A DNA stretch of 50,832 nucleotides from Seison nebaliae (lineage: Eukaryota), in the NCBI GenBank assembly GCA_023231475.1, contig JALJEE010002282.1, positions 124,001 through 174,832 on the forward strand, in the 5' to 3' direction. Below the pieces are notes generated by a model. It was given only the letters and a program-made list of their open reading frames with translations, did not search any database and had not been told where the DNA came from. This document shows, in pieces, positions 10 to 47,140 of the stretch. The position numbers and the translations under genes are program-made. The stretch's first letter is position 1; every line of letters begins with the position of its first letter.

Positions 10-1421
10 TCAATTGACGTTTGTTCCATAGGAGACTACGAATAAAAAAGAATTAACAACAAATCAAAATTATTTGAAAATAAAGAAAAGAAGAACTTGG
101 TTATCAAAAAATTTAGCTGGTAAAATTTTGGGAATGCTTCCAGCGAACGATGACTTTAATATTTGTTCGTGCTTTTCAATTTCTTTCCGAAGTTCAATCT
201 CATTTTGCTCTTTCTCTTCCTGTAATTTTTTCGTTTCATTATATTTCCTGATTCCTTCTTCTGCCAATTTTTGAGCTTCCTGTTCTTCCAATATCAGTCT
301 AGCTAATCTCCTCTCCTTCTCTAACTTAATCTGTTCCAATCGTAATTGTTCGTTCTCTATTTCTTCTTTCTCCTTTTCAATATGGTGCAATTCTCCCGGC
401 AACATAATCTTCATATTTTTCGATGTTTCATTTGTCAATTCGATAGGTAATTCTGATGATCTATTATTCTCTTCAATTTCACTACTTTCTAACTGCCATG
501 GATTATTTCCATTGATTGGAGAATAATCGATATGTTCAACTGATTCAATGAATCGAACTTGATGTTGAGTCGATTTATTCAATGGTTCTCTCTCAATTAC
601 TTCAACTCGTTCCATAGTCGGTTGACGAGAGATTTGAATGACTTCTTCAATTTCATATTTTTCTTCATAAACATCTTCAACTAATTCGTCTTTTGGATAA
701 TAATTGGTTTCCAATACGGTTTCCTCTGATTTAATATCTTCATTTTCCGAAATTATTTTTACAGATTCTATTTCCGTTTCTAGCACAGGCAATTCGTTTG
801 AAATAGTTTTTCTAATGAAATCTTTTGGCATCGGATTTCTGAAATAATTTATTAATAATTATTTAAAATTTTCATTCAAATTATCCTTTTTCTGATAGTG
901 AATTGAAGGATAACTTCTGATGAGAATTGATAGATTTGGAGAAATAACTAAAACGAGGTGGAGTTTCTGCACTCTTCGAATTATCTTTCATATCCTCGTC
1001 ATTAACTATTGAATGGAAATTAATAAAAATTTCTTTTAAACGACAGATGAACCATCATCTTGTAGAATGTATTTAATGACGACGGTACAATTATATAATT
1101 TCCGTAAATAATCCCAAACTGCCGTTCCTCTCATTCCATTCAATTGTTGTCCATTCACTGATACGAGAAAATCTCCCACTCTTCAAAAAATGATTTTTTA
1201 TTCGAAATAATTTTAAGACAATTTTTAAACTTCATGTGACCACTAGAGGCAATAATTCCATAATTCCTAGCACGAATAATCTGATAGAGATCATAAGTCT
1301 CATTAAATTCGACCTAAATATTCCATCATTAAATATCTAATTCGATAAAAAAAAAGTGAACTGATATACCTAATCCATAAGATGTCGATTCGTATTCCAC
1401 TACTCTCACTTTATCTTCCAT
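10..1421 (-). CDS. PDZ-domain protein with Glu-rich/coiled-coil C-terminus (6 exons)
   Basis: Manual splicing with introns 1314-1361, 1181-1230, 1006-1052, 839-914 and 35-96. It gives MEDKVRVVEYESTSYGLGISVEFNE...SGHMKVGDFLVSVNGQQLNGMRG (PDZ GLGI loop and GD-x-L-x-x-VNG motif), joined to ORF 70..831 with an E/K-rich coiled coil. The last exon and stop are tentative. Confidence 0.7.
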
Positions 1422-1729
1422 TAGAACTGTTATCAATTTTAATAAGTCGTCTCTTATCTTATCACTCACTTCCTCCTCCACTTATTAATCGTCGTATGGT
1501 GTGAGAGTTGTGAAGGTAGAATAGTAGATAAACGTGTGGAAATAATGAATAAACTTCAATTTTTTTCTGTTCTAAAGAATTTTAATTCTCTATTTGTCAG
1601 TGGGTAAATAACAATGAATTATTTCCAGGCTGAAGGTCGTCAACTTTTCATCAACTTCAAATTCTTTTTATTTAACGAAACTTTCAACTCACAACCACAT
1701 TGAAAGTTGATGAAGGAAATAGATAATAA

Positions 1730-2491
1730 TTATTCATCTTCATAACATTTACGAGCGTCGACAGGTGTCGGAACAAAAAATGGTAAAAATTCTTTTCTCG
1801 AATTCGACGCGGAAGAATTAGTGAATGGCTGAGAGGAACATACTGATGTAACAGATAAATTTGAATTCGATGAATTTTTCGTGGGCAAACCGACACAAGA
1901 TGTTCGTTTTGATGTGACGTTCAATGGCAGATTGGATTGATGTGATGGAATTGTAGTTCGATTCAATTTATTGAAAACATGATCCTGATCATCATCATCC
2001 AAATTACCGTTCTGATCAGGATATGGTGTTGTCTGATAATTATTGTTTATAATCGTTGCATTTGAATCGATTTCCGTTCGATTATTATTTAATGTCCCTA
2101 AATAACCATATCGTTGCTGATGTTTCATATCAGGTAATTGATATTTTTTATCATAAACGTTCGTTGGTGGCGGTGGCACTTCGTCCACCATTCGAGCAGT
2201 CGATGGAGGTTTTCCCATGATCAGTTTACGAAAACCTTTTTGTAATAGATTTCCATTGGGACTACTCAATTCCTCATAATTTGATTCGAATAATTTTATC
2301 ATTTCTTCAGTTCGTTGTAACGCCGCCAAATTCTCCATTTTCCTTCGAGATGAAACCGCTAATTTCTTCACAATCGATTCCGGTATATTCTCTATCTCAA
2401 TCATTTCTCTCACCATATCATCCAACGACAATTTTTCATTTATTACATTTTGTTCATTCTCCTTAAATTCACTTTTTATCACTTTATCCAT
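1730..2491 (-). CDS. Uncharacterised 253-aa protein (helical N-terminus, low-complexity N/S-rich tail)
   Basis: 762-nt ATG-initiated ORF in AT-rich DNA with protein-like composition; no family recognised. Confidence 0.6.
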   Translation of the reverse strand: MDKVIKSEFKENEQNVINEKLSLDDMVREMIEIENIPESIVKKLAVSSRRKMENLAALQRTEEMIKLFESNYEELSSPNGNLLQKGFRKLIMGKPPSTARMVDEVPPPPTNVYDKKYQLPDMKHQQRYGYLGTLNNNRTEIDSNATIINNNYQTTPYPDQNGNLDDDDQDHVFNKLNRTTIPSHQSNLPLNVTSKRTSCVGLPTKNSSNSNLSVTSVCSSQPFTNSSASNSRKEFLPFFVPTPVDARKCYEDE

Positions 2492-2571
2492 AATAAAAAA
2501 AAAAATTTTATTTAAAAAAATTTTATTTAAAAAAATTTTTTTTATTTCACATAAATAAAGTTCAAATCATT

Positions 2572-3966
2572 TCAGCTTAATTCTTCAAATGGAATCCAAT
2601 CTCTCGGATTATTTAACACCTCTTGAATCTTCTTCTCATCAAATCTCAATTTATGTTTATACGTCCATTTCTACATAATCATATTATCAGTCATTTATAT
2701 TGGTATCAAAACTAAGAAGAACTAACAGCAACAGCAGGCATTGAAACTAGAATACTTTCGATTTGAGCGTTTGGTGTATGTAAACCGAACTTCGTTCCAC
2801 GATCATGAATCAAATTAAACTCGACATATCTCAAATTAAAAATTATAAATAATTCATTTCAACAATCTCTAACTTCCCCCGTCGAAACAATTGCCAATCA
2901 CGTTCTTTCAATCCATATCCATCAAAACGATGTCGATCTACTATCGGGAAATAACTCTCCTTAATCGAATCACCACACATCTAAAACAATTATCATCAAA
3001 ACGGTCAAACGAGTGATTAAAAGTAATAAAATTTAATAGAAATAGAACTTTGACGAATCTGAAACATTTTTCGGAATCGTCATTTTCATTAAGATCATCA
3101 AAAAATATTCCGCCAATTCCACGATGTTCATTACGATGTTTATTAAAGAAATATGTATCACACCATTTTTTAAATTTCTCGTAATAACGATCGTCGGCAT
3201 AACCACAAGTCTTCTTTAAAACTTTATGAAAATGAATGCAATCCTGAAAATCATTTAATATTTAAAATGGATTTAAAATAACTTTCTCATTCAAAAAATA
3301 TGGTGTCATATCCGTCCCTCCACCGAACCACCAATGTTTCTTTCCGTCACTTTGTTCCAATTCGAAATATCGATAATTGAAATGAAGGGTCGGAACATAA
3401 GGATTTCTCTATGAATGATTGAAGAAATTTGATTGATGGTAGATGAAAAATAACTGGATGAATGACTGAACTAATTCCTGTGGCGAAGAATTTTGATGGT
3501 TCATCCAAAATATCAGATCGTCGTGATTTAATTTGACGGACAGCTTCTTTCGGTAATATTCCTTGTATAACTGATACATTCACTCCACCACGTTCCCAAG
3601 TTTGACCATCTTCAATTACACAAGTTACACCACCACCACCCTCATCGATTTGTCGTTGCCATTCGTCGACGACGAAAAATTTCTCATCTTCATATTCCTC
3701 CATTTTATTACATATCTCTCGTTGTAATTGGAGAATATATTTCTGCATTTTATATTTCATTGACGACTTGTCATATTTCATAATCATCGAATCGCCGTGC
3801 ATAAAATGAGCATATGGTACGGAACCATAAGTGGTGGTCGATTGACTTTTAGCATGAACAACACTGGTAGTGGTGGCAATCGCTGTCACTCCACCACTAC
3901 AATTAAAAAATTGATTTTAAATAAGAGGAATAAAATTAACATTAATATCTTCCAACAATATTTCAT
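2572..3966 (-). CDS. CPOX: Oxygen-dependent coproporphyrinogen-III oxidase (7 exons)
   Basis: Motifs [84 protein letters not shown] and IESILVSMP. Introns 3897-3940, 3409-3454, 3244-3282, 2981-3048, 2830-2873 and 2671-2726. Confidence 0.95.
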
Positions 3967-4094
3967 GATAAGCTTTCGATCAACTTCAATCAATTCGAAT
4001 GAGAAATTTAAATTTGAAAATTTATTCTGAAATTTTATAGAGAATTGAGAAAGATTGGATGATGGAAAATAAAATGGTATTTAGAAAATAATTG

Positions 4095-5303
4095 ATGGAG
4101 AATTATAAATTTCGTTCATCACTCGCACGAACTTATTATGAGAAGACAATTCGAGATAATGAATTGAATTTAACAGATCGATCGACAGTATATCTTCTCT
4201 GCTCAATTCTCTCATTTTTCTTATCTTGTTAGTATTATGAGTTGAATGGAGATGGATGTCTGGAGAAGATGATGACGAAAAGAAACTTCTGCCAATCTCC
4301 TCACATTCTCCAACTCAACGAAGATGAAGAGACAATGGAATTTTTGGAAAGGAGTAAACAATTGTCATATTCATTCTTTACACAATTCTACTATTCTTTC
4401 GTCTCATCCGTTCTCTACTTCTTCAAGACGAAAACGGACATTCTCGGCCTCTTAAATTGCGGACGAATGTTCGTTCTTTCCAAGAAGAATTTCCAGCAAC
4501 TTCTTCCACGTTCACAATTCCATCAAATTTTAGATTTGGGTTCCAACTAATTATTTGCTATTAGGAAATTATTCAAAATTATTCTTTTTTTTTTAGGGTC
4601 CGGTAATGGAGACGTTACTATTAAATTAAAACAATTTACTAATAATCAAATTGATGTCACTGAAATTTCGACGACAATGAAGTCGAGATTGACAGAAAAA
4701 AATTTTAAGTTTCTATTCATTCAATTCAATCTCACATTCATTCTTCATTCAAGTGTTCTCGATATTGATTTCTATCAAATCGATATCTCAAATTTTCTAC
4801 ATATGACAAATGATTGTGGAAAGAATTTATTCAAATATTCTCTTGTGACTTGTTTGAATTTGTTGGATCGAATAGAAAAACCGAAAAAGTTATTGGACGA
4901 AATCGTTTTATTTTTACTCGAACGTGACGATTCGAGGAAGATTGGTGGAATTCTTCTCATTGCTCTCGTATTGCCATATGAACCATTTGTGGAATTTCCA
5001 ATAAGTGAGGACAAAAAAATCGAACGATTACCAGTGGAAAGTGGAAGTAATGATATTGAGATGAATATTGTCAATTTCATCGAGTTTATTAATGACAGAT
5101 ATAAAAATTTAAATGATAGATATGAAGAGTTTAAGAGGAATTATGGAGGAGTGGAGAATGAATATTCTCTTGAAAGAATGCATTATCAATTAGTAGTTAA
5201 ACGAGTCGCTCGAACTCCTTATTATAGTGAAGGTGATTTACACCAATCCTATTATCGTCTTTCAGACTATCTATTCGTCTGTGAGTTGAGACCACTTGAA
5301 TAA
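4095..5303 (+). CDS. METTL9: Protein-L-histidine N-pros-methyltransferase (DREV family, 4 exons)
   Basis: FRSSLAR N-terminus, KTDILGLLNCGRMFVLS, SAM motif LDLGSGNGDVT, VTEISTTM, CLNLLDRIEKP, ALVLPYEPFVE and PYYSEGDLHQSYYRLSD. Introns 4188-4232, 4540-4596 and 4709-4753. Confidence 0.92.
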
Positions 5304-5471
5304 ATTGATTGATCTCATCTAACGCTGTTAGCGGCAGATTTCCAATTAAATTCTTTTTCCTGCAATTGACGCATCATTCATTCATTCATTCATTCACCGA
5401 CTGGAAATGATGGAAAATGAAATGGCATTTCTTCTTTTATTTACGAAAATAAAATTATCATAAAAAATATC

Positions 5472-5973
5472 ATGTCTTCTTTTTCGCGTAAAAGGAAATA
5501 TTCTTCCATCAAATCCATTAGTAATAATCTCAATAAGAAGAATGGATTATCTATAACAGATTCAAATTTCAATTCAGGCAAATCCACCATCAACGGTCTC
5601 TTTGATGATCTTCGCAAATGTATTCCGACGTTTCCCTATGAGAAACGTCTGTCCAAAATTGATACGTTACATATCGCTTATTCGTACATCTCATTACTCA
5701 AATCGATGATGGAGGAGTCGAATGAAGGTAATCCAATAATTTTCATCCAGAAATCGGCCTCATCCGATCCTTCAACGTTATTCCATGCTGATTGGGCATC
5801 CAACGGTTAACATTCCATAAAACTTAATGAAATTGAATTTGAATTAAATAGATTTGTTATCAAGAATTTGCTGGTTAAATTGGTCGTCGTTAGGATTGTC
5901 ATCTGGAGACGCTAATTATTATTCCACCCAATTCAATAATTATCTTTCTCATTTTAAACGGAATATGAAATGA
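5472..5973 (+). CDS. Fer2/PTF1-family HLH transcription factor with degenerate basic region
   Basis: INGLFDDLRKCIPTFPYEKRLSKIDTLHIAYSYISLL is the PTF1/Fer HLH signature. After intron 5806-5851 comes WASNDLLSRICWLNW, resembling the Fer2 (48-related-2) C-terminal W-x-x-S-D-L-x-x-R-L-S-W-I-x-W motif. Confidence 0.85.
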
Positions 5974-6229
5974 TTTCCATTAAAATATCAGATCAAATTT
6001 GAGATAATGACTCAATTTGTTTTGAAAAAAAGATGTTTTCAGTCATTTAAAGCTTTGTATGAAGATTTACAGAGGAAATTTAATTTTTAATAAAAATATT
6101 TATTTATCAATTTTTTTTAATTCAAATCTTAAGCTTAAGATATCCTGCTTCTTCTGTTGTATTGAAATAAATTTCATTTTCTATTTTTATATCGAACTTG
6201 AATTTTTAACGAACTACTATTGAATAACA

Positions 6230-6490
6230 ATGTTAGCTCGCACATCCACTGCCTTAGTTAAGCGATCTGTCATGCATGTTGCCAAACGACAATTGCATGT
6301 AGATCAGGCTGGTCAGCCATTCAAAGTTCATATTTTCCATAATTACTTTTCTAACTTCATTTCTCTTTTTTAGAATATGCCATTTGGTCGAGGTTCTCCT
6401 CTCACCTTCACTCTCGGTATCAGCCTGTTTTTCTCGTCTGGATTTTGTATTCCTTTCCTGATGGCGAGATATACGATGATGAACAAGTAA
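6230..6490 (+). CDS. COX7C: Cytochrome c oxidase subunit 7C (2 exons; absent from ORF track)
   Basis: Intron 6326-6373 gives MLARTSTALVKRSVMHVAKRQLHVDQAGQPFKNMPFGRGSPLTFTLGISLFFSSGFCIPFLMARYTMMNK: a mitochondrial presequence, G-x-P-x-x-N-x-P-F, and a TM segment with F-x-x-G-F-x-x-P-F. Confidence 0.88.
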
Positions 6491-7136
6491 AGTTATCGGC
6501 GGAGATTTCAAGAGAAAAACTTAATGGAATTTCAAAATTATTTCTTCATATTTCTCTTTCTATTTGATTAGTAAAAGTTCCTCAGAATTCTTCTATTTCT
6601 ATTTCTGTTTACAATTTACATTATTTCCTACCCAAATTTTCAAATTCTAATTTCACTCTTCAAAGATTGACACCATATTATTTCGTGTTAATTTAGTTTA
6701 GGTGTAAGAGAAGATACAGACGTGAAAAGACACGTATAATTTGTGTTAAACCAAAAAACAATTTGATTAGGGGAGAGGATATATTGGAAAAATATTGTTT
6801 CTTTTGAATTGGAGAAAAATTTGCTTTGAAACATTTTTCTTGTGACTTTTCTCTTCTTATAATGATGTTGTTTTTTTCACGATTTTCGATTGAAATTCAA
6901 ATGAAAATTAATTCGCTACACTCGACATGGATGAGAAGGGGAAGTGTTGAAGAGGTGACTCTCATAGCGAATGATTAATAGACGTCATTAATAAGTGGAA
7001 TTAGGAGGAAGGAAAGAAGTATTATCGATTTAGATGAAAGAATTTTCTAAAAATTATTATGTATCTACTAATTAGTTTAATTGAATTCAGAATTAGATGA
7101 GAAGGAGGAATGGAACATAATGAAGAAATTGAGTTG

Positions 7137-8283: not shown

Positions 8284-8285
<2 letters not shown>

Positions 8286-8320
<35 letters not shown>

Positions 8321-9468: not shown

Positions 9469-10443
9469 ATGACATCAACATCTTTCGAGAATGACGATGA
9501 AATTAACTCGGTCAATTGTAATCCATTGGCAAAGAAATCGAAGTTTACTCTACTTCGCCAATTCATCCTCTATCTATTCATCTTTGGCATTGTGTTGGGT
9601 GTGGTCTTCTTCCTTCTCGGATATCTGCTTCCAATAAAAGTCGAATATTATCATATTGACATGAACAAAAATGGAAAGTCGGAACATCAAATCTCGGAAA
9701 TTCTAACAGAATTAAATAAGAATAATCGAAATAACTTCCTCGCCAATACCCTGAGTTTAGGACACAATGATGATATGGACGAGAACAAAGATACACAACT
9801 CGCTCGATTGTTACGAGAATCGAATCGTTTTTCTAAATCGAACGGGAAGATTTCTGTTAGAAAATTTAATTTTTTTTAATTTATCATTCATGATTTCTAA
9901 AGATTCATGACATTTCTGCCATTCAATATAATAAGAAAGTTCGAAGTTTTCGTATGGTTGGATGGTTATTGTTTATCGTTTCAACGATCGGCGCTTTCGC
10001 CATGATAATCGTGGGGAAGGTATATGCTCGTAAATTGGAGAAACCGGAAGAGTTCGCTAATAATTTCCCGTCTTGCACTAATGCAAATACAAAAGCATCA
10101 ATTATATCCGATCAATCATTATTATGTTCCTCTACACAGACGTTTATATTTCTCTCATGGAAACTTAAAATTTTCAACAAATTACTTTTTCAGGTCAAGT
10201 ATGAAATCGAGTGATCCCAACATTGAGGCATTAAAACGAACAACATTAAATGCTATTTTCGAAGGAAATTCAATTGCGACGCCAGTACAACCCCAACAAT
10301 CTGATGGTGATGGTCAACGACATTCGACTCTTTCCATGAGAATTCCGGAAAAGAAACAATTAATTCCAGTAGAGCCATGGCGACATTCATTAGGCGCCGA
10401 AAAGATGGATAATAGAGTTTGGGAAAGTTTATATAAGAATTAA
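9469..10443 (+). CDS. Neurensin-like two-TM vesicular membrane protein (3 exons)
   Basis: TM1 ends LLGYLLP. After intron 9856-9902, IHDISAIQYNKKVRSFRMVGWLLFIVS resembles neurensin D-x-x-A-x-x-F/Y-N...G-x-x-L-F before TM2. Second intron 10142-10193. Confidence 0.6.
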
Positions 10444-10445
10444 AA

Positions 10446-11511
10446 TTAAACATTTAATTTTCTATTAATCCATTGAATATACGGACTAACTTTCGCATAA
10501 ACACCACCATCCGAACATTTATAACCCCAGTTCACTATACCAATCATCTCCCATCTCGCCACTAAACTGTAACGATTTTTACAGATCAAACTCGCTCCAG
10601 AATCTCCTACAAACAGGAAAAAAATTTCAAATAATTTTAATGAGAATTAAAAAACCGTTACATGAATCACCGAAATCACTGTTGTTCCCACCACCACAAA
10701 ATTCCAAGGAATGTTGAAAATTATAAAATTTTCCTGCACATTCACTTTGTCTGTACAAGTTTAACTGAACTTCGTGCGGTCGATCAGGAAATTGTAAATC
10801 TAAAATTTTTATTGAAATTTCAAAAAATTTCTCTAACTATAAAAACGACTAAACTATTTGTGTAACCCCAACCAGGTTGCATGCAAATACGGTTGTTTTG
10901 ACGTCTTGCTACAGCTACGGAAGCGCCATTCGGTAAACATGGTGGTCTGATGATATAACCGAAATTTTTGATTTTTCTCTAAAAATTTAATTTTTTAAAA
11001 TTAAATTTTTATTTTTAAAAACTTTCAATTTCACTAATACAATGTCGTTGAAATGTTTATACGGATTGTGACCGTCTGGTATATGGAATGAATCGACTTC
11101 TTCTCCATTTTCATAAAATGGTCCGATTGTTTCCGATAAATTATCGACGTTCATATAAACTCGATAATCACTCAAATTCCATTTTGGGTCATAAGAAAAA
11201 CAATGTCCTGCCGTTATAAAATGTTGATCAGTGATGATGGTACCAGTACAATGTGTAACATTATTCATTTTTATTAGAACCTTAATAATTTTATTAAAGA
11301 ATAATTGGAAATTTGAAAAGAAAACCATCCACGGATAAACTTTACCGGATATTTCATTACCATTAATCACACGTGAAGTAGCTACATAATTCTGTACTCC
11401 ACAAAACTTCTGATATTGATAAACGGTTTTATAGACGTTAAATCGGAAACAATCAATATTTAGAAGGAGAATAATAAACAAGAAGGTGATAGAGGGAAGA
11501 TTGGACTTCAT
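10446..11511 (-). CDS. Secreted trypsin-like S1A serine protease (5 exons)
   Basis: Signal peptide MKSNLPSITFLFIILLL, activation site R|VING, YPWM, CTGTII, TAGHC (His), NDIVLVKL (Asp), GWG, DSCNGDSG (Asp189 and Ser195), GIVNWGYKC and VYAKVSPYIQWI. Introns 11281-11325, 10979-11022, 10800-10854 and 10607-10655. An in-frame upstream ATG at 11604 is a less likely start. Confidence 0.93.
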
Positions 11512-12813: not shown

Positions 12814-13366
12814 GTTTCGTCTTTGAAAAAATTTGGTTGAAATTAATCTCTCTAATTTTCTCTGTTGAAAACTTATATAGTCGAAGAAATTTTTAAAAAT
12901 AAACGTGCGATCTCCTTCTGCAATACTGAAATATTCACTTTCGTAAACTTTCTGACATTTAAAAAGAATTTGAACAGAATCTGTATTTAATCATAAATCC
13001 CACTCACTACATGTCAACAAAATATAATCTTCCAATTCAAATATGTAAACTTCACTAGATAAATCTGTAAATGTTGATATCGAAAATGTGGATGAAATGC
13101 AATCTAAAAAAACTCGCGGTTTTTCAAAATTTGAACGAAATGCAAAATTCTTCTTTTAACCAATCATTTTGGATTCTATTCCTTTTGAATAACAAAAAAA
13201 TATCTTAATAAAAATATTATAAATTTTAAGTTTCATTAAATATTTTAATAGAATTTTAAAAAATTATCGTTTTATCGAATTAATTTTATCCCTAATTTAA
13301 ATACAATCTCAATGTAAGAATTAGAAATGTTGTCATTAATATTCCCAATTCATCACGTGCTTTCAT

Positions 13367-13448
13367 GACGAGGTGGCCGAGTGGTTAAGGCGTTGGACTG
13401 CTAATCCAATGGGCTCTGCCCGCGTGGGTTCGAATCCCATCCTCGTCG
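13367..13448 (+). tRNA. tRNA-Ser(GCT)
   Basis: GACGAGG/CCTCGTC acceptor stem, TGGCCGAGTGGTTAAGG D-arm (A box), TTGGA-CT-GCT-AA-TCCAA anticodon arm, long variable arm and GGTTCGAATCC T-loop. A T-run Pol III terminator lies at ~13456-13462. Confidence 0.97.
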
Positions 13449-22956: not shown

Positions 22957-23008
<52 letters not shown>

Positions 23009-33424: not shown

Positions 33425-33458
33425 TTCCTTTCCTTTCCTTTCCATTCCATTCCATTCC
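33425..33458. repeat. (TTCCT)n(TTCCA)n pentamer repeat
   Basis: ttcctttcctttcctttccattccattccattcc. Confidence 0.8.
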
Positions 33459-36400
33459 TTTTTTTGATTACATAAAATTGATAGAAAGGAGAATGGACGA
33501 TGATATTAAATAATCGATTTGTGCATTCTAGATTCCATACATTTTACATCGTTTAATGGACGGCGAAGATATTCATATATCATTTCCGGATGAATCCAAT
33601 ACAATTCCAATATTCAATTGTTTGGATGTTAATATGAAATGTTTCTATTCTGATGGTCTGATATAGAAGAGTCTCGTTAGATAAACACTGAATGCATAAG
33701 AAATTATTCCTCTCTTAATATAAACAACTAGGAAAAAATTATTTTATGAGGAAAAACGAAGAAAAAGAATTTAATAAAATCTTCTCATAAAATCTTCTTT
33801 CATAAAATCTAGGTGGCGTGGAGTATGCTCAGTTATTGATGATTCTATATATCTTACAGTTAGCTCATCTCCCAAAGGAAATGACATCATGATTACCAAT
33901 TCTTCAATTCCATGGATAATCATCATAGTCAGATATGTGGGCGGGTAGAGATTGAAATTTGATGACGATCTGCTTCTAATCAACTTCTTTTCTTCTCATT
34001 ATTTTATTGGCATCATTCTCATCTTCTTTGTCGTCGCACAGTCAAAAGAAGAATTACCGATGTCCTGTTTGACCGATCTGATCATTCCCCTGCGAATCGG
34101 CGACTGCTGTCATTCATTTGGAAAGGAACTTCTTTCATTTCCCCAATTCCCCGAATGAATTAGATTATTCTGATTTTTTTCTTCTCAATTTATGAAAGTT
34201 GAACGGTTTGGCGGTTAGCTAAAGTACGTGGTACTCCAAAAGAACTTTAGAACTTCTTTTTAGTAACATGTCGAATTTGATACATAAATATCTCACCATT
34301 ATTTGACAAGTGAAAAATGTTTATGAAAATCTTGGAGATGATGTTGTTGATACTATAAGGAAAACAATATGGTTCGATGAATAAAATATTCAATAAGCAT
34401 TGAACTAAAAAATTAATAATATATCGTGCAAAAAAAGTGATGGATCTTCTTCTCCAATATAAATTAAAATGGATAAATTCTAGAGAGATTCCATAAACGA
34501 ATATATGTGACCGTAAATTATTGCTTCCGCTCTCGTGATGTCCAGGTGTGAGAATTGTATGGTTTACGAATATCTCTAGGAAATCAATTCATATTCTTGC
34601 CAAATGAATTGAGAGATTAATAAAAATAAAATGAAAATACAATTCTCATTCATTCTCCAAATCTCGAGAAACAGTGGCACGAATTAATAGAATAATTTTA
34701 TGATTCCTCTCCTAAATTAAAAATATCAACTTCCAAATTTCGAGAAGAGAAATATCGTTAAAAAATTTACTGAAAAAATTTCATAAAAAATCCACAGAAG
34801 AAAGCCATAAAAAAATCGTCAGAAAATAATCTTCATAAAAATCCTCAGAAAATTTATCACAAGTAGTAATGTAATTTATCGAGTAAAATATCATAAAAAG
34901 CATTTTGGAAAAGATTTTGATGAGAATGTTAAAAAAGTTAGTTGGGAAATGAAAACCTCAACAGATTTTTTACGATTACTCAATTTTACATCGATCATCT
35001 ACTTCATACCATGAGGTATGATAGAAGAGAATGACATGGAAAGAATTTGTTGTCGCTCTATGAGTCGTATAGGGAATTAGAGAAATATTGAAGGAAATGA
35101 AAGTCGAAAGGAATTGGCATTTCCATTAAACTTCCTTTTCGTCATTTAATCAGTATCTTAACTAAAGTCCTTTTTCCTTCTTGTTCCACTTTCTCTTTTA
35201 GTATTTCCTTTTCGTCTTTGCTGGAACATAAAATTCGATTTCGGAATAAGAAGAAGGTTAGGAATAGAAAGAATTTTTGTTTTCGAAGAAAAACTGAATT
35301 GACGAACTGAATTTACAATAATTGAAATTTTCATGAACGAGAAACCGGGAAGGAATTCTTTGTAGTTTGACCTTCTGCCAATCTAATGTGACTATTCTGT
35401 TTAGCCGATAGAAAAGTTCATAAATGACATCGATTGGAACTAATTGTTCCGAAGGATTAGATGATCAATAAAAGGAATAAAAATGAGATGTGAAAATGAA
35501 GTGAATGAAAGAATTGAATTAAATTGATATTCAAGGTTACATCTCCAAAATCAATGAGAGAGAGAATATGAGAGAGAAGTTAATATTTTTACTTTTACCA
35601 CTAAAGTTTCCCACATGTTTGCAATACTCATTTGAGAAAAATAAAATTTTTATTATTGTCCGTGACTCTATCGACGTGAAGTCATAAAAGAACGTCGATA
35701 ATAATATGTCATCGAATGAATAGGCATCGAGTCAACTTTCAATTGCATAATTTCTTATATAAATTCATGGCAATTTTCCGAGGAACCAGAAGTTGAAGGC
35801 CGGAAACATGTTGGACGAGTAAACATTTGAAAACACGACGTGCATTCGTAATTTGATTAATCACGTGAAGTGAATGGAAAGTAAATAAAACTACAAATAA
35901 GAATAGAAATTTCTCTGATTCCCAAATGATTAACGACCACTAACAATAAGCCTAATAAGCTTAGTTTAACTTATAACTTAAGATGGAAATTTTCCTTATT
36001 TTCCAAGCTACGTTTCTTTGAATCTGATAAGCTGTCAATATATTTCTCCTTATATTCGTTTTCCTGCTTTCTTTAAATTCTAAAAAAAACAATTCTCAGT
36101 TTCAGAATCGAATGAAGTGCTCTTCAACTTCGAATGAAGTTAAGCGTGGTGAGCGAACGATGAGGAGTTTTCTTTTTTTCGTTCGATAAAGGTGAAGTAG
36201 TTTCTCTTTCGAATATTCGACGACGAATATCCTTCTCTTATCTTCATTGATCGAGTCAGTTGCTTCAATTTTCATTAAGTAAATTTTGAGAAGAAAAGGA
36301 CTTACTTATTCTTAAGGCCTCAAATCATCGTCATTAAAGGAGACTGTATTGCTGTTGAAAGCGAATGAATTGATTTTGTACGATTGAAGAGCAGGTTAAA

Positions 36401-39400
36401 TAAATTCATTTCGCGTAATAGAAGGAAGGAATGGATATGTATATACTTCTTTTCTATTGTACTTTATTTGATGAGATTGTAATTTTTTTTTTACTCAAAA
36501 CGATTTCCTTCTTAAGGAAATTAATCGATTTCGATTAAGAACTTCTTGCGACGGAGACAAGAGATATCTCAACAAATCTAATAATTTCATAAAACGTATC
36601 TGAAATAAATCTGCTCAATCTCTCCTGATAATGGAAGTAGAAGGACAATAAAAGAGATTTTACAAGATTGATTGTGGAGAGGAATATTTTTCGATTCCTG
36701 CATAATGGAATCGAAAAATACTTTATTGAAACAGATTGTAACGATATAAAAAATTCGCTTAAAAATCTTTCTTCATTTATCATCTGCCAAACCAAAAAAT
36801 AGATACCACATTCCTACTTTTCTGTGGGAATACAATTATGAGAATGCACAAAAATTAGTCATCTTTTCTGTTGGGAAGAAAATGTGCGTTCTGACAAGTA
36901 CATGAATGTAATTAAATACATTAAAATTGAAGGATAAGATGATGATGAAGGTCTTGACAATTTGATGAAAAAGTAGAAATGGAAAGATGAAACCACCGCT
37001 ACTATATTGGTAACCAAGCATTATAATTACCTTGTTTATTGTTTACAATATCATCGAATGCCGACGATACTTGAGATGAGAGACGATATTATCGCTATTT
37101 CAAACGAAACGGCTAAATGACTGGTCTGCAGTAGTAAATAGCCATTAAAGTGAACGTGTTTCTAATTACTGAAAGAGAATGATGTTGTTCATGAGAAATT
37201 TATTTTCTTCACAAACTCCGATTTGGGAAATGATCCGGTTATATGAATTACCTTTACGGATCGATAACAGTAATGAATCGTTCTAGATTGTGTTAATGAT
37301 CCGTAGACGCATCATTCTTGTCCCATAAAAATTGCTCTAATGAGATTATTCAAAAGAATGGAACATCGGTGAAAAAATATGGTTAGAAAAGTGAAGATGA
37401 CTCGATTTCCAATGGAATTCCATAAGTGAACTCTCAATTCGTTTGGAAGAGTAAACAGTAAATGATGGTAAGTCGATTGGGAGGATGTTGAAATAATACA
37501 TGTAATAATATTGTGAGTAATAATAACAATAACAGAATGAAATATGAAATAAAAGTGACTTGGGAGAAAATCAGGCAGAAGTACTTACTTATTCAAGGTT
37601 TGAGCAGCCAGCAGCTAAATAGTCTGGGAAGGAATGAGTCATTATTATACATGTTCTTCTAATACATTATCATTCGAATAATTTGCCTTAAGAACCATAA
37701 TGAATGATCCTTATGATAATCATGAAATGCATATGTTTCGCTCCTTTCCCTCTTATTATGAAAGAAAAATTAATATTTTATTTATCGAATAAAACATGTA
37801 TTTATATGTATTACTTTTCAAAAAATTGTGCAATAAAAATTTTGGATGAAAATGATAAATCGGAGAAGAAGATCGAGAATGAATGATAAGAAAAAGTAGA
37901 AAAAATTTGATTCGGACCGGAGGAGAACGAAATCAATTCTGCTTTATCTTTACTTTGAATTTTCTGCTTGGTTGATAAATCCGTTTTTATTCGTCTTCGT
38001 TCTCCTAATTATATTTCAGTATCATCTTCTTTCTGTAATTTGACAAACACTTCTATTTCTGCCCCTACCATAGAACAATGATGAGTTGGGAAAGGAATAA
38101 ATAGATGGAATATTGATCACTAATCAACATCAATCACTTACCGGAAAGTAAGAAAGATAATTGTAATCATCAATTCATTCTCAATTCGACGGAAATTCTA
38201 TAATCAATGACATCAACTTCATCATCAACTGAAGTTCGTGAAGATGGAAGGAAGAAACATTGGAAGTGAATCGTTATTATCTTCTCCTATTTAGTGTTGA
38301 ACAGTTCGACTCTTCAAGTCATCTTTGACAACGACATCATTGTCGTCAAGTAAGAAGGGGGGAAGCTCATTGGGAAATTGTTTATGATCGAAGTTCGAAG
38401 GTTGAAATTCGATATCATTCTACATAATCATTAGGAAAAATGACATAACCGGAAATGAAACGAAATTGAATAAGATGTTTTGACTTCCTTTCTGTTTGAA
38501 AATGTTTTATTATTCTTCCTGATTCGCTCACTATTTAACATCACTCTATTTTATAAACGGAATTTGAATTATACGTTTCTCTTTGACTACGACGAATATC
38601 ATTCGAGAATGATTGAAGTTTTCAGTTCTTATAAAATTCAGATCATTTCTTTGTTTGAAACAATGGAATGATTTCCATCAAAGCTCCTTTCCTATGGTAT
38701 TATTTCTTTTGGATTTAAATAATTCCTTTTTTTTCGGATTCCTCTTCTATTTATTGAGGAGAAAATTTGCGATTCGTGATATGGAATGCATAAAAATAGA
38801 ATGTAACGGAATATTTATTAATTTGTAACGAGTAAAACAAAAGAAATTATTCAACACTTCATAAATCATTATTTAATCTCTTCATCATTCACGAGAACAA
38901 TTGTACCAGAATTTGAGAGGTTTCCAAAAATTCAGTTGAGATACAAAGAAGTTCGTTTAATAGGAACGTAATAAATTACGAAATTATTAATAAATAATAA
39001 GAATTCCCAAAAATAGATAAATGGATGATGGAACATCAAAACTCATTCGACGTCTCTTCTCACCATCAGAGAATGTTTCATATAGAATCGATTGTAGAAT
39101 ATGGAGTAACGATAAGTGGAATAAATAAATCGATTAAAAAATAATTCATTCATATTAAATCGATATTATTTTATCGTCCAAAAAAACTTCGAGAATATGA
39201 CTAAAGGGAATAAAGGAAACTCATACCGTTCTCCATACATAAAGGAAGGACAGGAAACTATTTATCATTGAGAATTTATTCATTCTTGTGGATCTCATCA
39301 ATTTTCACACATCTGTCGACATCTACAACAATTTCTTCATTGTTAAATGGCAGTAGAATTGTGAGAATATCATGATAGCGTATGCGAGAAAGAATAATAG

Positions 39401-42400
39401 AAATTAGTAACATAAAAAAAGTGAAGGAAAAATGAGAAACAATTTAGGAATTCCAAAGCATTCCATTTCATTGAAACATTATCGCCTCATCATTTGTGTG
39501 GGGTGTGGGGGAGAAGGGCGAAGGGATATTATTTTCCATTCACCTCCAGGACTAACGAAAGCTAATTATCTACTTCAATTATTCCGGCGTATAATATCCT
39601 TAAAATGCTAACTCATTTATCTGGAATGGAGATGGGAAAAATTCGCCATATCCAATTTTCTTCTTTCCAACAATTTTATGAGATTTACTTATGAATAATG
39701 TCTTTTGTCTTAATCGAATTATATAATTTCATGTTAGTGACATCTTCTTTTGTCCAATTTCATTCTTTCATTCATAATTATGAAGAGAACGGGACTTACG
39801 AATAATTAATAATTCAGAATAGTAATCGTATTAAAAAAATTTCGTAAAACAAAAATATTGTGGTCATTTTCTCATCCGTCGTACGCATTCGTCTCGTCTC
39901 GTGTGATGAATAATCACGTAATTACAAGCAGCACAATGTTATGGAATCAGCAGGAGATCTACAAAATTACATGTCCATTGATACTCGTCATTATTCCACT
40001 CACACTCATTATTAGTTGACTTATTAAATTTGACATTTTCTCACAACCCGATCGGGTGGATGAGACGGAAGTCTCATAAAAATTTGAAAATTTTTTAGAA
40101 AAACGTAATTATAATAATAATTCATTTCTAGAAGTTCCATCGTCTTACAGATGATCCATCATCAATACCATAAATCGCGATATTAGTATGATTATCGATT
40201 AAATTAGTGGGAGCACATTGAATGAGAATTTCGAGAAAGGAAAAGAATGTTCATTGGCAGTCTTCAGATTGGAATGATTTGTATATGAAGTTGATAGAGA
40301 TTAATGGAATAAGAATGACAAATCGACACCTGTCATCTCTTATCGGCCACTGTCCGCTTGATCTTTATGTTACGTGATGTAGATGATTACTATTCATTTA
40401 TTGTTCTATTAAGAAGCACGAAGAAAATGTAAATTTGGAAGAGATGTGTCTGTATGTCATTATTGGAGAACAGCTTCTGATATTAGTTCGATTTATGACG
40501 AGAAAGAACAAGAACAACAAGAACATCGTCAAATGAAGATGAGTTAAGGAATAGGAGAATAATGAGTAACGGTACCATTAAAAGTGGTATAGCTACTTTG
40601 AAATTGACCGAAAAAAAGAAAATTTATTTAACTACTTTCCTATCAGTTAACATCTGCTGGTAATGATAGTTGATTTTCTTGATGTCTTTACGACATCCAA
40701 TTGTAGTTGATTCACTAAATTTTCATCAACTTATTTACATTGTAGCCATAAATCAAAAGAGGGAATTGTATTGACAAATTCCATATGTGGTTGGTGATAA
40801 TATTGTGATGGGAAGATTAGTTGAAATTAATAATTTAAATAATTATTGTAGTGTTTTGATGGAATCGTTTTCTGTCGTTCACCATCTGAGATGATATTGA
40901 TGTTATTATTTTTATTTGTTTTTCATACTATATCGGTGGCATTCATGAGTGTTAGAATGTCTATTCTTAGTTTGTAATTGTTCGTTGTCTGTTGCCATCG
41001 GACAGTCGGGGGAACTAATGGATATTTTTATTGTAAAATAATTTTATGGTTATATCGAAAGGTCAATCGATGGAATTGAAAAAAGAAAATGGAAGAATAA
41101 AAATAGATGTTGTTGCGAATTGTAACTAAAAAATCGTGATGATGTTAAAGAGATGTAGATCGAAAGAGTAATTCTCTTATTGACATTGCCTCCAATCGAT
41201 TGTGGAGTTGTTAAGAGAATTTGCAGTGAAAGGAAAAAATGGAAATCTATAAGAAAGATCTATAAAACTTCTTATTTGGAGGCTATTGTCTCGAGGAGAT
41301 GAATAATCATAAAAATTTTTTCCATTTTATTTATGGACATTGGTCATCCGAAAATGGCATCGTTCCGCCACTCTATAATTAGAATAATGTTTGATATTCA
41401 CTAACATTCGATTAGTCTGAATGGAGAATTGTCATCACCTTCATACAATTACCATAATTATTCGCACTCGACATGAACAGAAAGAAAATGTGCAAAGAAA
41501 TTTCCTATAATTCTCATCATCCGTTCAATTTCAACATTTCCGTTACTTATTATATTCAAGAAGAGAAAATTAATTATTGTTATTATTATTATATATAAAA
41601 TTATTTCATATTTCACACACCGAATTGGAAGCGATTGAAGTTGATCAATTTATTGATGGGAAGGAATAATATCGCGAGAACGAAGTGTCGATTATGTCAC
41701 AGCTTATCTTGTTGCCATGACAATGGTCAGTTGACTTCCGACAATTCGGACAAACGAAGACTATTAATATTTACGTTCCATCTCTACAAGTACCATCATC
41801 GTGGAAATGGTACTTCACTTCGATTGCATCAGTTGTTGTGCAAATAGATTTTCGTAAACGAGAATCATCTCTGAAACAAATGAGACATATTCAATTGAGT
41901 GAAATTAATTAAAGAAAAAGAAAAAGAAAAAGAAGAATTTTTTCGAGTAAAGATAAAATTATGATAAATTTCAAGTCGAGTTTCGACCAGTTTCTTCGAG
42001 ACTTCCAGTTGACTGATGATGAAGAATGTACATAGGAAAACAGTGTGATGTTTATACAAACAAAACAAGAATATGAATTATGCTGCTGGCCATTCCTCCT
42101 TCAGGAATCCTTTCAAGATTCCATTTACTCTCACATTTTTAAAGTTTCCGTCACAAAGTTTTCTTTTCGTCGAATTGAGAGATGGGAAACGTTCCTTCAA
42201 TAATTGAATGATTCGTTATAAAAAGAAATGGTGAAGTGACAAATCATCGAGCAAGAACGATAAGCGAGGAAATGGATATTTATCAGATGAGTGTTTTTAA
42301 AACCTCACAGATGATTCTTGTCGAACAATCGAACAATTTCCATTATTTGTTGGTGCTTGATTACCATTGAACAAAAGGTGATCGAATCATGGTGATCGAA

Positions 42401-45400
42401 TAATGAATAAGAATAATGGAATAAATTTCGTTGCAATTATAGAAAGAAAATAAGGAACATTTCATATACTCGAGAAATTGTTAAGGCGTGAATAGATGAT
42501 GATGATGATGATGACCATGGATATATTGTTCAAATACTTTCATTAATTCAATACCTCTCACCATCAGAAATTATTTCGCCTTTTTTTTATGAAACGAATA
42601 ATAGTCGTTTGGGATATTGGGAAAGAAAGAAAAATTTTATCTGAAAGAAGATTGACGGAAAAATGAAGAATGAAAATATATGACAACATTATGTCGAACG
42701 AATGAACGCATAATGATGATAATGATTTACAAATTGACATATCACAGTACGGTGTTTTTGCATGAGAAGTGAGTGAATGTCATCTTACATGATCATATAC
42801 GGAAATTGAGATAAATGTGCATGAATGTTGTTTAGTTAAACATTAGGAGAAGCAGTTGAAAAAAGAATGTTGATGAGAATTGTTCGTTCTTTCTTTTTTT
42901 TTTTGAGAAATTTACCAGAAGATTTCATTATATATCAATAATAAGAACAACAACTATTCATCCATCGAATTGCATCGAATGAGAAACTTATAATAATTTT
43001 CGTTCGATCATTCACAAATAAAGGAAAAAAAACCATGAAATTGATGTTGTTCATTAATTTCCTTTATTATAACGGATGAATGATACAATGATTTGTGCTT
43101 TAGGCAAAAGCAATTCGTGCAATCTTCTCCTTTCTTATTACATAATTAATTTATGATATTCTTATGAGAAATTGTGAAAACGAGGAACATTAAGTGAGAG
43201 AGGAGACCTTCCAAGTGGGAAAACCACAAAATTTTTAAGAGTTCTAACAGCTGCAATTTACTGAATCATCTCTCATTTGGAGAATAGAGATACATCAACA
43301 TAATTGTCGGCTGATATTCCGCCAGCTGTAACTGAGTGATAATGTAACAACATATTTTCCACTAAATAAATCGTAATAAATTACTGTTTATGTAAAGAAG
43401 AAGAAGAGACGAGTTGGATAAAATATGAGCTAAAGAAAAGAAGTTCTTATGGAGTACCGACCTAATTAAGTTGAAGCGAAATAACGGAAACAAACATTGA
43501 CGATGATAATGAACGATAACTGAATTTGTTCATGTTTATTTGAAATTATGAGGTCATATCTACAATAACTTATTATCGGAAGTAATGAGGAGGATGAACG
43601 AACGAGTAATTCGATGTCTGATAACCTTAGGAAGAAGGAATAATCATTAAATTACTTATCTGTCTGATTCCCTCATGGAAATATGTGAAACGATTTCCTT
43701 AACAAGAAAAAAATCGATTTTTTCTTGCAGGAAATTATTGGGAGGATAAATGAAATGTTAAAAGTATAGAGTTGTTGAGAGGTAAACTTTAGCTTATCAG
43801 AAATCATTTACATCGAAATTATTCTATTGACTATTAAGTCATATTATTCTAATTGTAATTTAGCCTGTCAATACGGTGGTTAATGATATGGGGGCGGGGG
43901 GTGAGAGAAGAAAAGGAGTGGAAATGATTTCCTTTTACATTCTTTTTTATTATTATTAATTTTCAATCTATTCTAGTCAGCATTAACTTACAACATCTTC
44001 CGGATTTACGTAAAATTCTTATTTTTCTTAAGAATAAAATAGAAGAAGGGACTGATGATAAGGAAATGTCAGTTACAGAAAGAATCTAATATACAGAAAT
44101 GGATTTATTATTCTTCTTCTTTCCATGTACTATTATATCGTAGTCAAACATTCGTCAAATTTGAGTGGAGTCGTGTGTATGTGGGGGGGTAGATTGGTGA
44201 AAGACACTTTATGAGAATAAGTATAATCGTTCCCGAGTCACAATAATGGTATATTGTTTATTCATATGACTAATTCATCTACCAAACGATCACTTCTGCT
44301 TATTCTGCCTTTCTTTCCGTCAGGTTGTTCGCTATTCTTCTTTTTTCATCCACCAAATCGATTTTCTATTCTCATCACAACACTGAATGATGTAAGTTGG
44401 AATATTGTCGATAAGTCTCACAATCATTAGAATAATAACTCGAATGTACATATGTCCATTGAATGAATTAGCTACTGGATTCAATTGGAATCGTGATTGT
44501 AATAACTACATGGAATTCTTCTTCTATTTCTTCCTCTCATCCACTTCTCCTTTTTCCTCCCCTAACAATTTATTTGGATCTTACACATCCTTACATATCT
44601 ATCTGTACGAAATTTATTTTCAACCAGAAGTATGTAAAGACACTAATTCACATAACGATAATAATTTACAGTTTATCATCCGAATGAATCGTTTGAGATT
44701 AAACGGAATTTTTCTTACAGAAGAAATTTATCATAAATCAATTCGTAAACTAATCAACACGATGTCTCCCAAGATTGACCTTTCCAATTAGATTTGGAAG
44801 TAAATTCTGGAATTCATTTGACGACTAATTTCTGATTATTACATTTTCTATTGTCTCTCTGGACGAGGGAAGAAGATTGCATAATAAATCTTCAACGATC
44901 ATATTTGGAAAGCAATTTAGACATTTCTTATAATAATATACAGTAACTAGGTCAACATCCTGATCTGCTACGTGATAATAAAAACATCTTTTAGATAATT
45001 TCTTCCAAAATGGAATATCCAATTGAAACTGCCAATTAGAACAATTATTATTTTCATCATCATCATCATCATCGAAAATAAGAAATTTAGAAAGAAAAGA
45101 AATTTCCTTTCCTTCCCCTTTTATTTATTCCTCGAATTTGATATTTTATTTTATTTTTGGTCAATTTTTTTTTTCTAGATAGACCAGTAGATCGTCTATC
45201 CTTTTAACCATTGAAATAAATGAGAAATTAAAATTATGAGATACACCAAAAAAAACGGACAGCTGAAAAAGAAAATGATTTAAAAGAACTGAATAAGGGT
45301 TTCCAAAATAAAAAATAAAGAAAAAGAGAGAGTTTGATGAGAAGAAATGGTGATATTAAAAATTATTAATTAAATTCAATCGATCGTTAATTTGGGTAAT

Positions 45401-45413
45401 ATCATGAAATTTA

Positions 45414-45668
45414 TTAATCAATCTTCATGAATGTTTGGAAAGAAACTTTGCCTTCATTGTCGAAAGAATAGTTGGATGGTGTAATTCCACCTTGACGCAT
45501 TTCTTCGACGGTCAATTTACCGTTTCGATTAACATCAGCTTCTTGGAATGTCATAGCTGACATATGTTGTCTTCGATGTTCGGCTAAAGCTTCTTTGGGA
45601 ATACCAGGTATTCCGGGAATAGTTGTAATATGATCCATTTCGTTCTTGCTACTAGTTCTAGAGGACAT
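45414..45668 (-). CDS. Small EF-hand protein (84 aa)
   Basis: FQEADVNRNGKLTVEE is a canonical EF loop, followed by a second degenerate loop DNEGKVSFQTF. TATA-like TATATAAAT lies ~130 nt upstream. Confidence 0.75.
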   Translation of the reverse strand: MSSRTSSKNEMDHITTIPGIPGIPKEALAEHRRQHMSAMTFQEADVNRNGKLTVEEMRQGGITPSNYSFDNEGKVSFQTFMKID

Positions 45669-46033
45669 GTTTCTTTTCGTTGGTGATATTAAAAAAGAAA
45701 TGAGACAGAAGAGAAACTATAATACGAATGGACAAATGTGAACAATGTTAATTTATTGAGGATGATGGAAATATTGTTGAGTAAATTAAACAAATATTTA
45801 TATAGAAACTAGTTCTCCAAATACTGATAAATGGACAGAGGAAGGAAACACATAAGATGAAAGACAATAAAACTTATTTGAAAAATAAAATCGATTAAGA
45901 ACATTAATGAAAATGAAGGAAATTCAATAATGAAACCATTTGGGATTGACGTCATCCAAATCCCGGAGATACATAATGAAATTTGTTACACAAATGAAAT
46001 TATGAAGTCGTTGAAGAAGTTAATATTTCGAAT

Positions 46034-47140
46034 TCAATTAATTTCTTTCTTCTTCATTCGTCGACGTTGTCGTAAAAGTCGAATGAGATCAACTTCGATA
46101 TTCTTCATGTTCTTTTGTCTCTTCACATCATCTCCATCATTATCATCATTCTTACCATGATAACGTGAGGAACGACGTCCGATCTTCTCAATAGGAAATC
46201 GCACTTTTCCGCATACATCGATACGAACACATTCGTCCGATTGACATTGTCGTTCACATGATCTAGACAAAAACTACAAATTGTATAATTACGATGATTT
46301 TTCATTTCCTTTCTATTTATATGAGTAGAGGTGATCTCAACAATTGATCGACCTTCTTTCACATCGAACAACAAAAGAAGTCGATATAGCTCGCCACTCT
46401 TTCAATGAAATCTGACGACGCAACAAGACAATCATTACCGTCTTTTCATTTCGTTCGTTCATTAAAAACTCTTACTAAACTTCCTCATTTCCTGACTTAT
46501 GTAGCGAGTAGATCGTATCACTAAATTTCATACTCATCTGTAAGAATTTGAGATCGATACCTGATTCATTCGTTTCTAAATACAATTATCGATGAATCAT
46601 CATGAATTATGAGCAAAATTAAACTTTTCTGATAAGTAGATGTACCGAATGGTGGATTCATTACACAAATATCAAACTGGAAATCATTTCGAATCACTTT
46701 CTCCAAATTTTCCACATTACAACAAATCAGATCTAATTGGAAATATTCATCCAAATTCTCCTTGTAATTTCGTCGACAAACTAACAGTGCGTCAATGTCA
46801 ATATCGACACCTAAACAATATCTAATTATTTCTTAAAAATTAATTTCTCTAATTTAAACTAACTCCGTTTCCATCGTCATGGAAACGGCAGACGCCAAAA
46901 TTCCAGTGCCGATACCCAAATCCAAATGACAATCGACATTTTCTCTCTCGTTTTTCCTCGGAAAATTATTTAAAACATATGAAGCGATTTCAACTAATTT
47001 TGAAATATTTTTAATTAATTAAAATATATAATCGAGTAACCCGCTAATGAAGGTGGAGTGTAATGTTGTTCTAAATGTTGTTTAGGTTTATCGAACTTCT
47101 CTAACTCTTCACACACTTCCTCTATCTCATACTTTTTCAT
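46034..47140 (-). CDS. METTL5: 18S rRNA m6A methyltransferase (5 exons)
   Basis: FDKPKQHLEQHYTPPSLA, LDLGIGTGIL, GVDID, catalytic MNPPFGT, GIDLKFL, IYSLHKS and IEVDLIR. Introns 46994-47040, 46822-46863, 46576-46624 and 46274-46480. Confidence 0.93.

Follow-up and report, generated by a model that had tools for sequence, protein, structure and literature searches.

A/GTT splice donors in the short introns of the rotifer Seison nebaliae

Introduction

How does an animal find the 5′ ends of its introns when almost none of them carries the expected donor? The question is raised by 50,832 nucleotides of Seison nebaliae DNA (assembly GCA_023231475.1, contig JALJEE010002282.1, positions 124,001 to 174,832 of the forward strand; the whole stretch is called the window), in which nearly every intron begins with GTT. 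In animals, a GTR donor and its pairing with U1 small nuclear RNA (snRNA) are treated as fixed. Seison, a seisonid rotifer, lives on Nebalia crustaceans; its genome measures about 46 Mb, and two lineages are known (PMC8351084). An earlier reading of the window from its letters (the sequence-only reading) had proposed 38 introns in 11 genes, 35 starting with GTT and three with GTA, and had invoked either co-evolved snRNAs or a size-based intron definition.

The donor signal

Eleven gene models, put together from three-frame translations, contain the 37 introns modelled here, which lie between positions 36 and 47040 and are nearly all short (Table 1). All have GT-AG termini; these were presupposed in the 14 introns that come from our own models, and at the 18 database-matched junctions of the IleRS, coproporphyrinogen oxidase (CPOX), and METTL5-like genes a terminus-free enumeration includes a GT-AG option in every case (18/18). 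The donor is GTT in 34 introns and GTA in three (donors at 4188, 16263, and 16051), GTG and GTC being absent. The 11 genes, the dominance of GTT, and the three GTA donors of the sequence-only reading thus stand, and its totals become 37 and 34. The major-class consensus AG/GTRAG (the slash marks the exon-intron border) is not followed: G is found at −1 in 8/37 donors and a purine at +3 in 3/37, and GTRAG never occurs, as had been claimed. Within 30 nt of the 37 donors there is no GTRAG alternative that keeps the frame, and among the 506 other GTs of the gene spans five GTRAG sites are left unused. One GTRAG site, at 46475, stands in a frame-breaking position 5 nt downstream of the GTT donor of the single 207-nt intron and is not the donor used.

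The GTT bias is confirmed as real and well above chance. T at +3 (34/37) exceeds the T content of introns (0.494; binomial p = 4e-8), the comparison on which the sequence-only reading had staked its claim, the frequency with which T follows a GT anywhere in the window (0.386; p = 2e-11), and the frequency after unused GTs within introns (25/49; Fisher p = 5e-5). Among unused GTs that fall in the intron size window, GTT accounts for 24/51. Beyond +3, the 34 GTT donors show no enriched base at +4, +6, +7, +8, or +10, and slight excesses of G at +5 (6 donors, p = 0.012) and of T at +9 (22 donors, p = 0.04); the recount of +5G over all donors (6/37) agrees with the earlier estimate of about six. 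The contention that downstream information is nearly lost holds for almost everything after +3, with the amendment that a small trace survives in the normal register: +4A and +5G occur together in 5/34 GTT donors where 0.66 would be expected (p = 0.0005, with no correction for the many tests).

On the exon side, the −1 base is A in 25, G in 8, T in 3, and C in 1 of the 37 cases, and 22/37 donors combine −1A with +3U. A is also frequent further upstream (25, 20, and 19 of 37 at −1, −2, and −3; p = 6e-5, 0.015, and 0.03). In the 20 phase-0 donors the −1 base falls on the third base of a codon; it is A in 17 and G in 1, compared with 11.9 and 5.7 expected from synonymous usage. Lys, Glu, and Gln codons crowd these exon ends (13/20 vs 20%, p = 1e-5), and all 13 end in A, compared with 75% elsewhere (p = 0.024), a pattern that might reflect old MAG/ sites turned into MAA/. 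In phase-1 donors, where the amino acid fixes −1, G is retained in 7/9. The earlier remark that −1 is usually A rather than G is therefore correct but incomplete: the exonic −1A is a selected part of the signal, favoured even at synonymous positions, and not the mere absence of G. The match to the standard donor consensus averages 4.0/9 in the donors and 3.6/9 in the 506 unused GTs (p = 0.01), which bears out the view that these donors fit standard U1 poorly. The donor core shown by these counts is A/GTT, with information lost after +3.

Support for the intron boundaries

In all 11 gene models the open frame runs through the last junction, and retention of 35 of the 37 introns would cause a frame shift or a stop. 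Letter-for-letter agreement with database Seison proteins is found at 23/37 junctions (18 in IleRS, CPOX, and the METTL5-like gene and 5 in the PDZ-domain gene; 21 GTT and 2 GTA), these proteins being themselves predictions. The remaining 14 junctions (13 GTT, 1 GTA) are our own models in genes with Pfam support. With a profile made from non-Seison homologues only, the modelled junction scores best of the GT/GC-AG options at 13/14 IleRS and CPOX introns; at CPOX intron 1 there is a four-way tie in which every option is GTT. A spliced aligner that weights donors for GT/GC and nothing else returns the same IleRS donors from the proteins of Brachionus (7), Adineta (7), and Owenia (8/8), two of the three alignments differing at one acceptor. 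The exon and intron length signatures of the window have no true match among the 19,906 rows listed of file 2 of PMC8351084, where a positive control worked; the one match obtained continues with other lengths and belongs to another gene.

The same aligner gives a different result elsewhere. A metagenome scan with the Adineta IleRS produced 80 loci with best identities of at most 59%, so that no rotifer DNA is among them. Alignments of 29 of these loci, chosen as likely intron-bearing, including some near-duplicates, and tallied by hand, gave 58 intron calls, from which 11 starting with GC were removed as likely artefacts. The 47 left comprise 33 GTA, 4 GTG, 6 GTC, and 4 GTT donors. GTT is thus found in 34/37 Seison introns vs 4/47 controls (Fisher p = 2e-15; p = 2e-4 for IleRS alone), and in one control locus with 38% GC and seven introns of 33–54 nt every donor is GTA or GTG. 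Hence, the method, short length, or AT-richness does not by itself give GTT.

Four sequencing runs compared with 2600–7100 yielded contigs and no joint that skips an intron, two of the runs giving no match. Two runs contain low-depth contigs for this region that are about 80–90% identical in the exons and cannot be aligned across most introns, and that correspond to a second diverged lineage. Pieces of this lineage break off within the first 10 nt of three GTT introns, at 3937 (+4), 4543 (+4), and 6335 (+10); this is a hint of conservation only and is not counted here.

Intron length, interior, and acceptor

All introns but one measure 39–76 nt, the exception being 207 nt, and the median is 48. 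The published transcript alignments of Seison show the same narrow range: among the rows listed of the PMC8351084 file, in which isoforms are counted repeatedly, transcript-to-genome gaps number 8 at 25 nt, 11 at 30, 20 at 35, 50 at 38, 526 at 41, and 1236 at 44, peak sharply near 47 (1744 at 47), and number 1060 at 52, 355 at 60, 92 at 70, and 19 at 85. On average 2.4 GTs compete for each acceptor; the one whose distance from it is nearest to 48 nt is the true donor in 33/36 introns, and the first AG past 38 nt from the donor is the true acceptor in 36/36, both rules having been fitted on these same 36 introns. Intron length does much of the work of donor selection, in agreement with the size-based definition proposed earlier. 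Interiors are poor in G (5.9% vs 15.9% in non-coding DNA) and in AG (13 vs 47 per kb). Acceptors are TAG in 26 introns, CAG in 6, AAG in 4, and GAG in 1, following a T-rich 3′ end of the YAG type. A scan for branch-point 4-mers reveals no clear motif; ATGA occurs in 10/37 introns vs 2.8 in mononucleotide shuffles, a weak null, among 132 words. A narrow length window, G-poor interiors, and a first-AG acceptor rule thus accompany the A/GTT core.

Outside the 37 introns, the stretch 50362–50408 (+) runs from A/GTT to TAG over 47 nt and resembles, and may be, a further intron of the same kind.

Comparison with known donor systems

Entamoeba, to which the sequence-only reading had pointed, has GUUUGU(U) donors with U at +3 and a compensating, co-evolved U1 (Roy and Bowser, 10.1101/2022.06.08.495308). 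Common to Seison and Entamoeba are GT-AG introns and a donor +3 that is U and not a purine. Entamoeba is intron-poor and 88–90% of its donors are GUUUGU, among the strictest known (10.1101/2022.06.08.495308), whereas Seison is intron-rich (about 3 introns per coding kb across the 11 genes) and has almost nothing after +3. The strict +4U, +5G, and +6U of Entamoeba are not found among the 34 GTT donors (+4T 13, +5G 6, +6T 17). Unlike Entamoeba, Seison favours an exonic −1A and is an animal.

A U1 register shifted by +1 was reportedly described by Roca and Krainer in 2009 at atypical human donors. Its hallmarks, an A before GT and a U at +3, are present in the A/GTT donors of Seison, but the human cases are rare and carry the full displaced motif, whereas in Seison A/GTT is the norm and +6G is at background (3/34). 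Shifted and bulged U1 registers at atypical human donors are also described in PMC4856993.

In Saccharomycotina, +4U donors are linked to the loss of METTL16/SNRNP27K, with U1 and U6 invariant (PMC10581693). Seison resembles these yeasts in its altered donor preference, and the yeast shift, which is lineage-wide, may trace to spliceosome changes. The yeasts change at +4, Seison at +3 and −1; a +4U reading was rejected for Seison, where +4T (13/34) is below its background of 48.5%. A text search of supplementary material found no splicing-factor names, a proteome-wide search not having been made. Cyanidioschyzon merolae has very few introns and a much reduced spliceosome. Its splicing without U1 (as cited in 10.1101/2022.06.08.495308) would be the extreme analogue for donor choice without normal U1 pairing in Seison.

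The introns of Seison work like those of the major class (GT-AG, T-rich YAG end), yet fail its donor consensus. Minor-class donors have the motif RTATCCT, which starts 0/37 donors, and a U12-type reading was rejected. The donor of the 76-nt PDZ-domain gene intron (839–914, −) resembles the minor-class motif with a T inserted behind GT; the intron has no evident branch site of that class, and the likeness is probably due to chance. GTT donors may be fairly common in bdelloids. No description of Seison or rotifer donors was found in the literature searched, whose coverage leaves out most subscription papers.

How the donors may be read

Standard U1 in its normal register would favour −1G and +3A, and both are disfavoured; hence, something in the reading of the donor has probably changed. 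The explanation that we tentatively prefer, at somewhat less than an even chance, is that these are ordinary major-class introns with a donor reduced to A/GTT, probably recognised by a U1 whose 5′ end has been rewritten, with help from length-based definition. The 5′ end of U1 is predicted to be rewritten so as to pair +3U and probably also −1A. A U1 that carried A at the place facing +3 in its normal register would account for the near-loss of the +3A favoured in other eukaryotes, and the partner of −1A may be an altered base of U1 or else the loop 1 uridines of U5. A weak donor duplex could be tolerated if donor and acceptor were bridged over an intron of about 48 nt with few rival GTs or AGs, and the minority of donors with +4A/+5G may still be read by U6 in the ordinary way. 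A rewritten U1 is preferred because the surviving downstream trace lies in the normal register and because Entamoeba, the only +3U lineage in print, has a U1 that compensates for it. Several points weigh against it. A perfectly compensated U1 should give a strong consensus at +4, +5, and +6, and 29/34 GTT donors lack the +4A+5G pair. Two changes would be required, for +3 and for −1, where a shift by one base would cover both with none. Most of the lineages whose donors have changed (Saccharomycotina, Giardia, Trichomonas, Thecamonas, Mamiellales) retain standard U1, these being changes at +4 (PMC10581693; 10.1101/2022.06.08.495308). The rewriting of Seison U1 is a prediction, an Rfam scan of the window having returned two tRNAs and no snRNA gene; moreover, the sample is 37 mostly short introns from a single window, and the two length rules describe the introns on which they were fitted.

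The sequence-only reading had missed a further option, namely that standard U1 is as a rule displaced by one base on the donor. In this register −1A would face the U of U1, +1G its first C, and +3U its A; a bulge at +2/+3 would serve the phase-1 donors in which −1 is fixed as G, and U6 would read +5G normally. We regard this as unlikely, on a comparison of registers that rests on position counts only. From a single change it predicts the very positions that are altered (−1A 25/37, +3T 34/37) as well as the A-ending Lys, Glu, and Gln codons at phase-0 exon ends, and the full shifted pattern with +6G and +7T is found at donors 10854 and 46480, the latter being that of the only long intron. But the displaced positions are at background in the 34 GTT donors (+4A 13, p = 0.35; +5A 13, p = 0.35; +6G 3, p = 0.31; +7T 19, p = 0.24), and the sole enriched pair, +4A+5G, is in the unshifted register. 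Validated non-canonical registers amount to about 1.5% of human donors (PMC4856993). Pairing with U1 might also be marginal, or U1 lost, with length and proteins choosing the donor, which U5 (loop uridines on the A-rich exon end) and U6 (G.U at +3, C:G at +5) would then fix; we give this, too, a minor share of the probability. It would fit a consensus match barely above that of unused GTs, length and first-AG rules that are nearly enough, and exon ends rich in A from −3 to −1, since U5 contacts −3 to −1 and U6 contacts +3 to +5 (PMC11347140). All three donors with −1T carry +4A and two of them +5G, resembling the trade-off between U5 and U6 (PMC10581693); U1 loss is reported in Cyanidioschyzon (as cited in 10.1101/2022.06.08.495308), and Seison lacks about 35% of the metazoan BUSCO genes (PMC8351084). 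A G.U wobble, however, accounts poorly for 92% U at +3 with A nearly excluded, and real donors fit the consensus slightly better than decoys (p = 0.01). We know of no animal without U1, which also counts against this option. Its boldest form, an intron-rich animal that has given up U1 pairing or the U1 ribonucleoprotein, with a molecular ruler of about 48 nt picking the GT and U5 and U6 alone setting A/GUU, appears quite improbable.

Far less credible is an origin in compositional drift (selection acting weakly on tiny introns rich in T) or in biased annotation or reconstruction. Introns are 49% T in a window of 31% GC, 14/37 junctions are our own models, the database proteins are predictions, and the junctions have no spliced-read support. 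But +3T reaches 92% while +4 to +7 are at background, unused GTs are followed by T in only 51% of cases within introns and at 24/51 in the size window, and foreign homologues yield the same donors with an aligner that elsewhere gives mostly GTA. What probability the rewritten U1 and its alternatives leave goes to mixtures and unforeseen causes.

Implications

The A/GTT introns are likely a variant of the major class in an animal, one not found in print for any animal in the literature searched. Where transformed donors have been published, the lineages concerned are microbes that have few introns and very strict motifs (10.1101/2022.06.08.495308). Seison, as an intron-rich animal with a transformed and nearly information-free donor, breaks this pattern. 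A rewritten U1, a shifted register as the norm, or U1-free selection would, if true, each be a first for animals as far as our searches reach, and the case bears on the share of donor choice held by U1 as compared with U5/U6 and intron length. For gene prediction in Seisonidea, donor models trained on human genes would misjudge most introns. Should the GTT bias be shared by other rotifers, the trait would predate Seison and extend beyond it.

Gene content of the window

The window has a GC content of 28–37%. Three protein searches show the products of the IleRS, CPOX, and methyltransferase genes to be 100% identical to Seison nebaliae database proteins, and a protein search shows that of the PDZ-domain gene to be identical to an unnamed database protein. 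IleRS was named from the protein search; Pfam provided the names of the others: PDZ (weak), CPOX, DREV methyltransferase, bHLH, COX7C, neurensin-like (weak), trypsin, PARP, ATP synthase b, and a small methyltransferase. The labels METTL9-like, for the DREV methyltransferase gene, and METTL5-like, for the small methyltransferase gene, are our own.

Table 1. The 37 introns and their donors, with the evidence for each (P numbers are database Seison proteins; "own" is our own model; "sole donor" is the only frame-compatible one; "profile" is that of non-Seison homologues; "aligner" is the spliced aligner).
Gene	Intron	Positions	Strand	Length (nt)	Donor	Evidence and remarks
PDZ-domain gene	5	36–96	−	61	A/GTT	agrees with P0137
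PDZ-domain gene	4	839–914	−	76	A/GTT	junction agrees with P0137
PDZ-domain gene	3	1006–1052	−	47	G/GTT	junction agrees with P0137
PDZ-domain gene	2	1181–1230	−	50	A/GTT	agrees with P0137; AAG acceptor
PDZ-domain gene	1	1314–1361	−	48	A/GTT	junction agrees with P0137
CPOX	6	2671–2726	−	56	T/GTTAG	P0121, profile
CPOX	5	2830–2873	−	44	A/GTTAG	P0121, profile; GAG acceptor (rare type)
CPOX	4	2981–3048	−	68	A/GTT	P0121, profile
CPOX	3	3244–3282	−	39	A/GTT	P0121, profile
CPOX	2	3409–3454	−	46	A/GTT	P0121, profile
CPOX	1	3897–3940	−	44	T/GTT	P0121; homologues leave two GTT donors equal
DREV/METTL9-like	1	4188–4232	+	45	A/GTA	own, sole donor; PF05219; exception
DREV/METTL9-like	2	4540–4596	+	57	G/GTT	own; Pfam-supported gene
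bHLH gene		5806–5851	+	46	G/GTT	own, sole donor; PF00010
COX7C		6326–6373	+	48	A/GTT	own; PF02935 position 28 is exon 2 start
Neurensin-like	1	9856–9902	+	47	T/GTTAG	own, sole donor; weak PF14927 on both sides; AAG acceptor
Neurensin-like	2	10142–10193	+	52	C/GTT	own, sole donor
Trypsin-like protease	4	10607–10655	−	49	G/GTT	own, Pfam; splicing rebuilds GDSG catalytic motif
Trypsin-like protease	3	10800–10854	−	55	A/GTT	own; +6G +7T
Trypsin-like protease	2	10979–11022	−	44	A/GTT	own, Pfam
Trypsin-like protease	1	11281–11325	−	45	G/GTT	own, least secure; in frame without stop
PARP (WGR-regulatory-catalytic)	1	14041–14089	+	49	A/GTT	own, Pfam
PARP	2	14254–14299	+	46	A/GTT	own, sole donor
PARP	3	14874–14919	+	46	A/GTT	own, Pfam; AAG acceptor
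IleRS	8	16000–16051	−	52	A/GTA	P0001, profile, aligner; exception
IleRS	7	16217–16263	−	47	A/GTA	P0001, profile, aligner; exception
IleRS	6	16395–16453	−	59	G/GTTAG	P0001, profile, aligner
IleRS	5	16815–16861	−	47	A/GTT	P0001, profile, aligner
IleRS	4	16965–17003	−	39	A/GTT	P0001, profile, aligner; in frame without stop
IleRS	3	17195–17250	−	56	A/GTT	P0001, profile, aligner
IleRS	2	17343–17397	−	55	G/GTT	P0001, profile, aligner
IleRS	1	17519–17569	−	51	A/GTT	P0001, profile, aligner
ATP synthase subunit b		20826–20891	+	66	A/GTT	own; PF05405
METTL5-like methyltransferase	4	46274–46480	−	207	A/GTT	P0136; +6G +7T; the one long intron
METTL5-like	3	46576–46624	−	49	A/GTT	P0136
METTL5-like	2	46822–46863	−	42	A/GTTAG	P0136
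METTL5-like	1	46994–47040	−	47	G/GTT	P0136

Between 26000 and 45400, about 19 kb of this otherwise very dense genome have no convincing coding exon and may be regulatory or hold untranslated exons. The idea that long introns with standard donors lie in 26000–45000 was rejected: the six-letter donor occurs 14 times vs 13.0 expected, there is no convincing coding exon, and no long intron is pinned. The region is the upstream side of a single-exon gene (21971–25858, −) for a leucine-rich-repeat membrane protein of 1295 amino acids. The two tRNA genes lie at 13367–13448 (+) and 48712–48783 (+), their anticodons, judged by eye, being those of Ser and Pro. The open reading frames 11761–12990 (−) and 1730–2479 (−) have strong coding scores and no Pfam match above the curated cut-off. 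An intronless open reading frame at 47341–48195 (−), with a signal-peptide-like start and tandem repeats rich in Gly, Gln, Pro, and Arg, perhaps encodes a secreted structural or adhesive protein.

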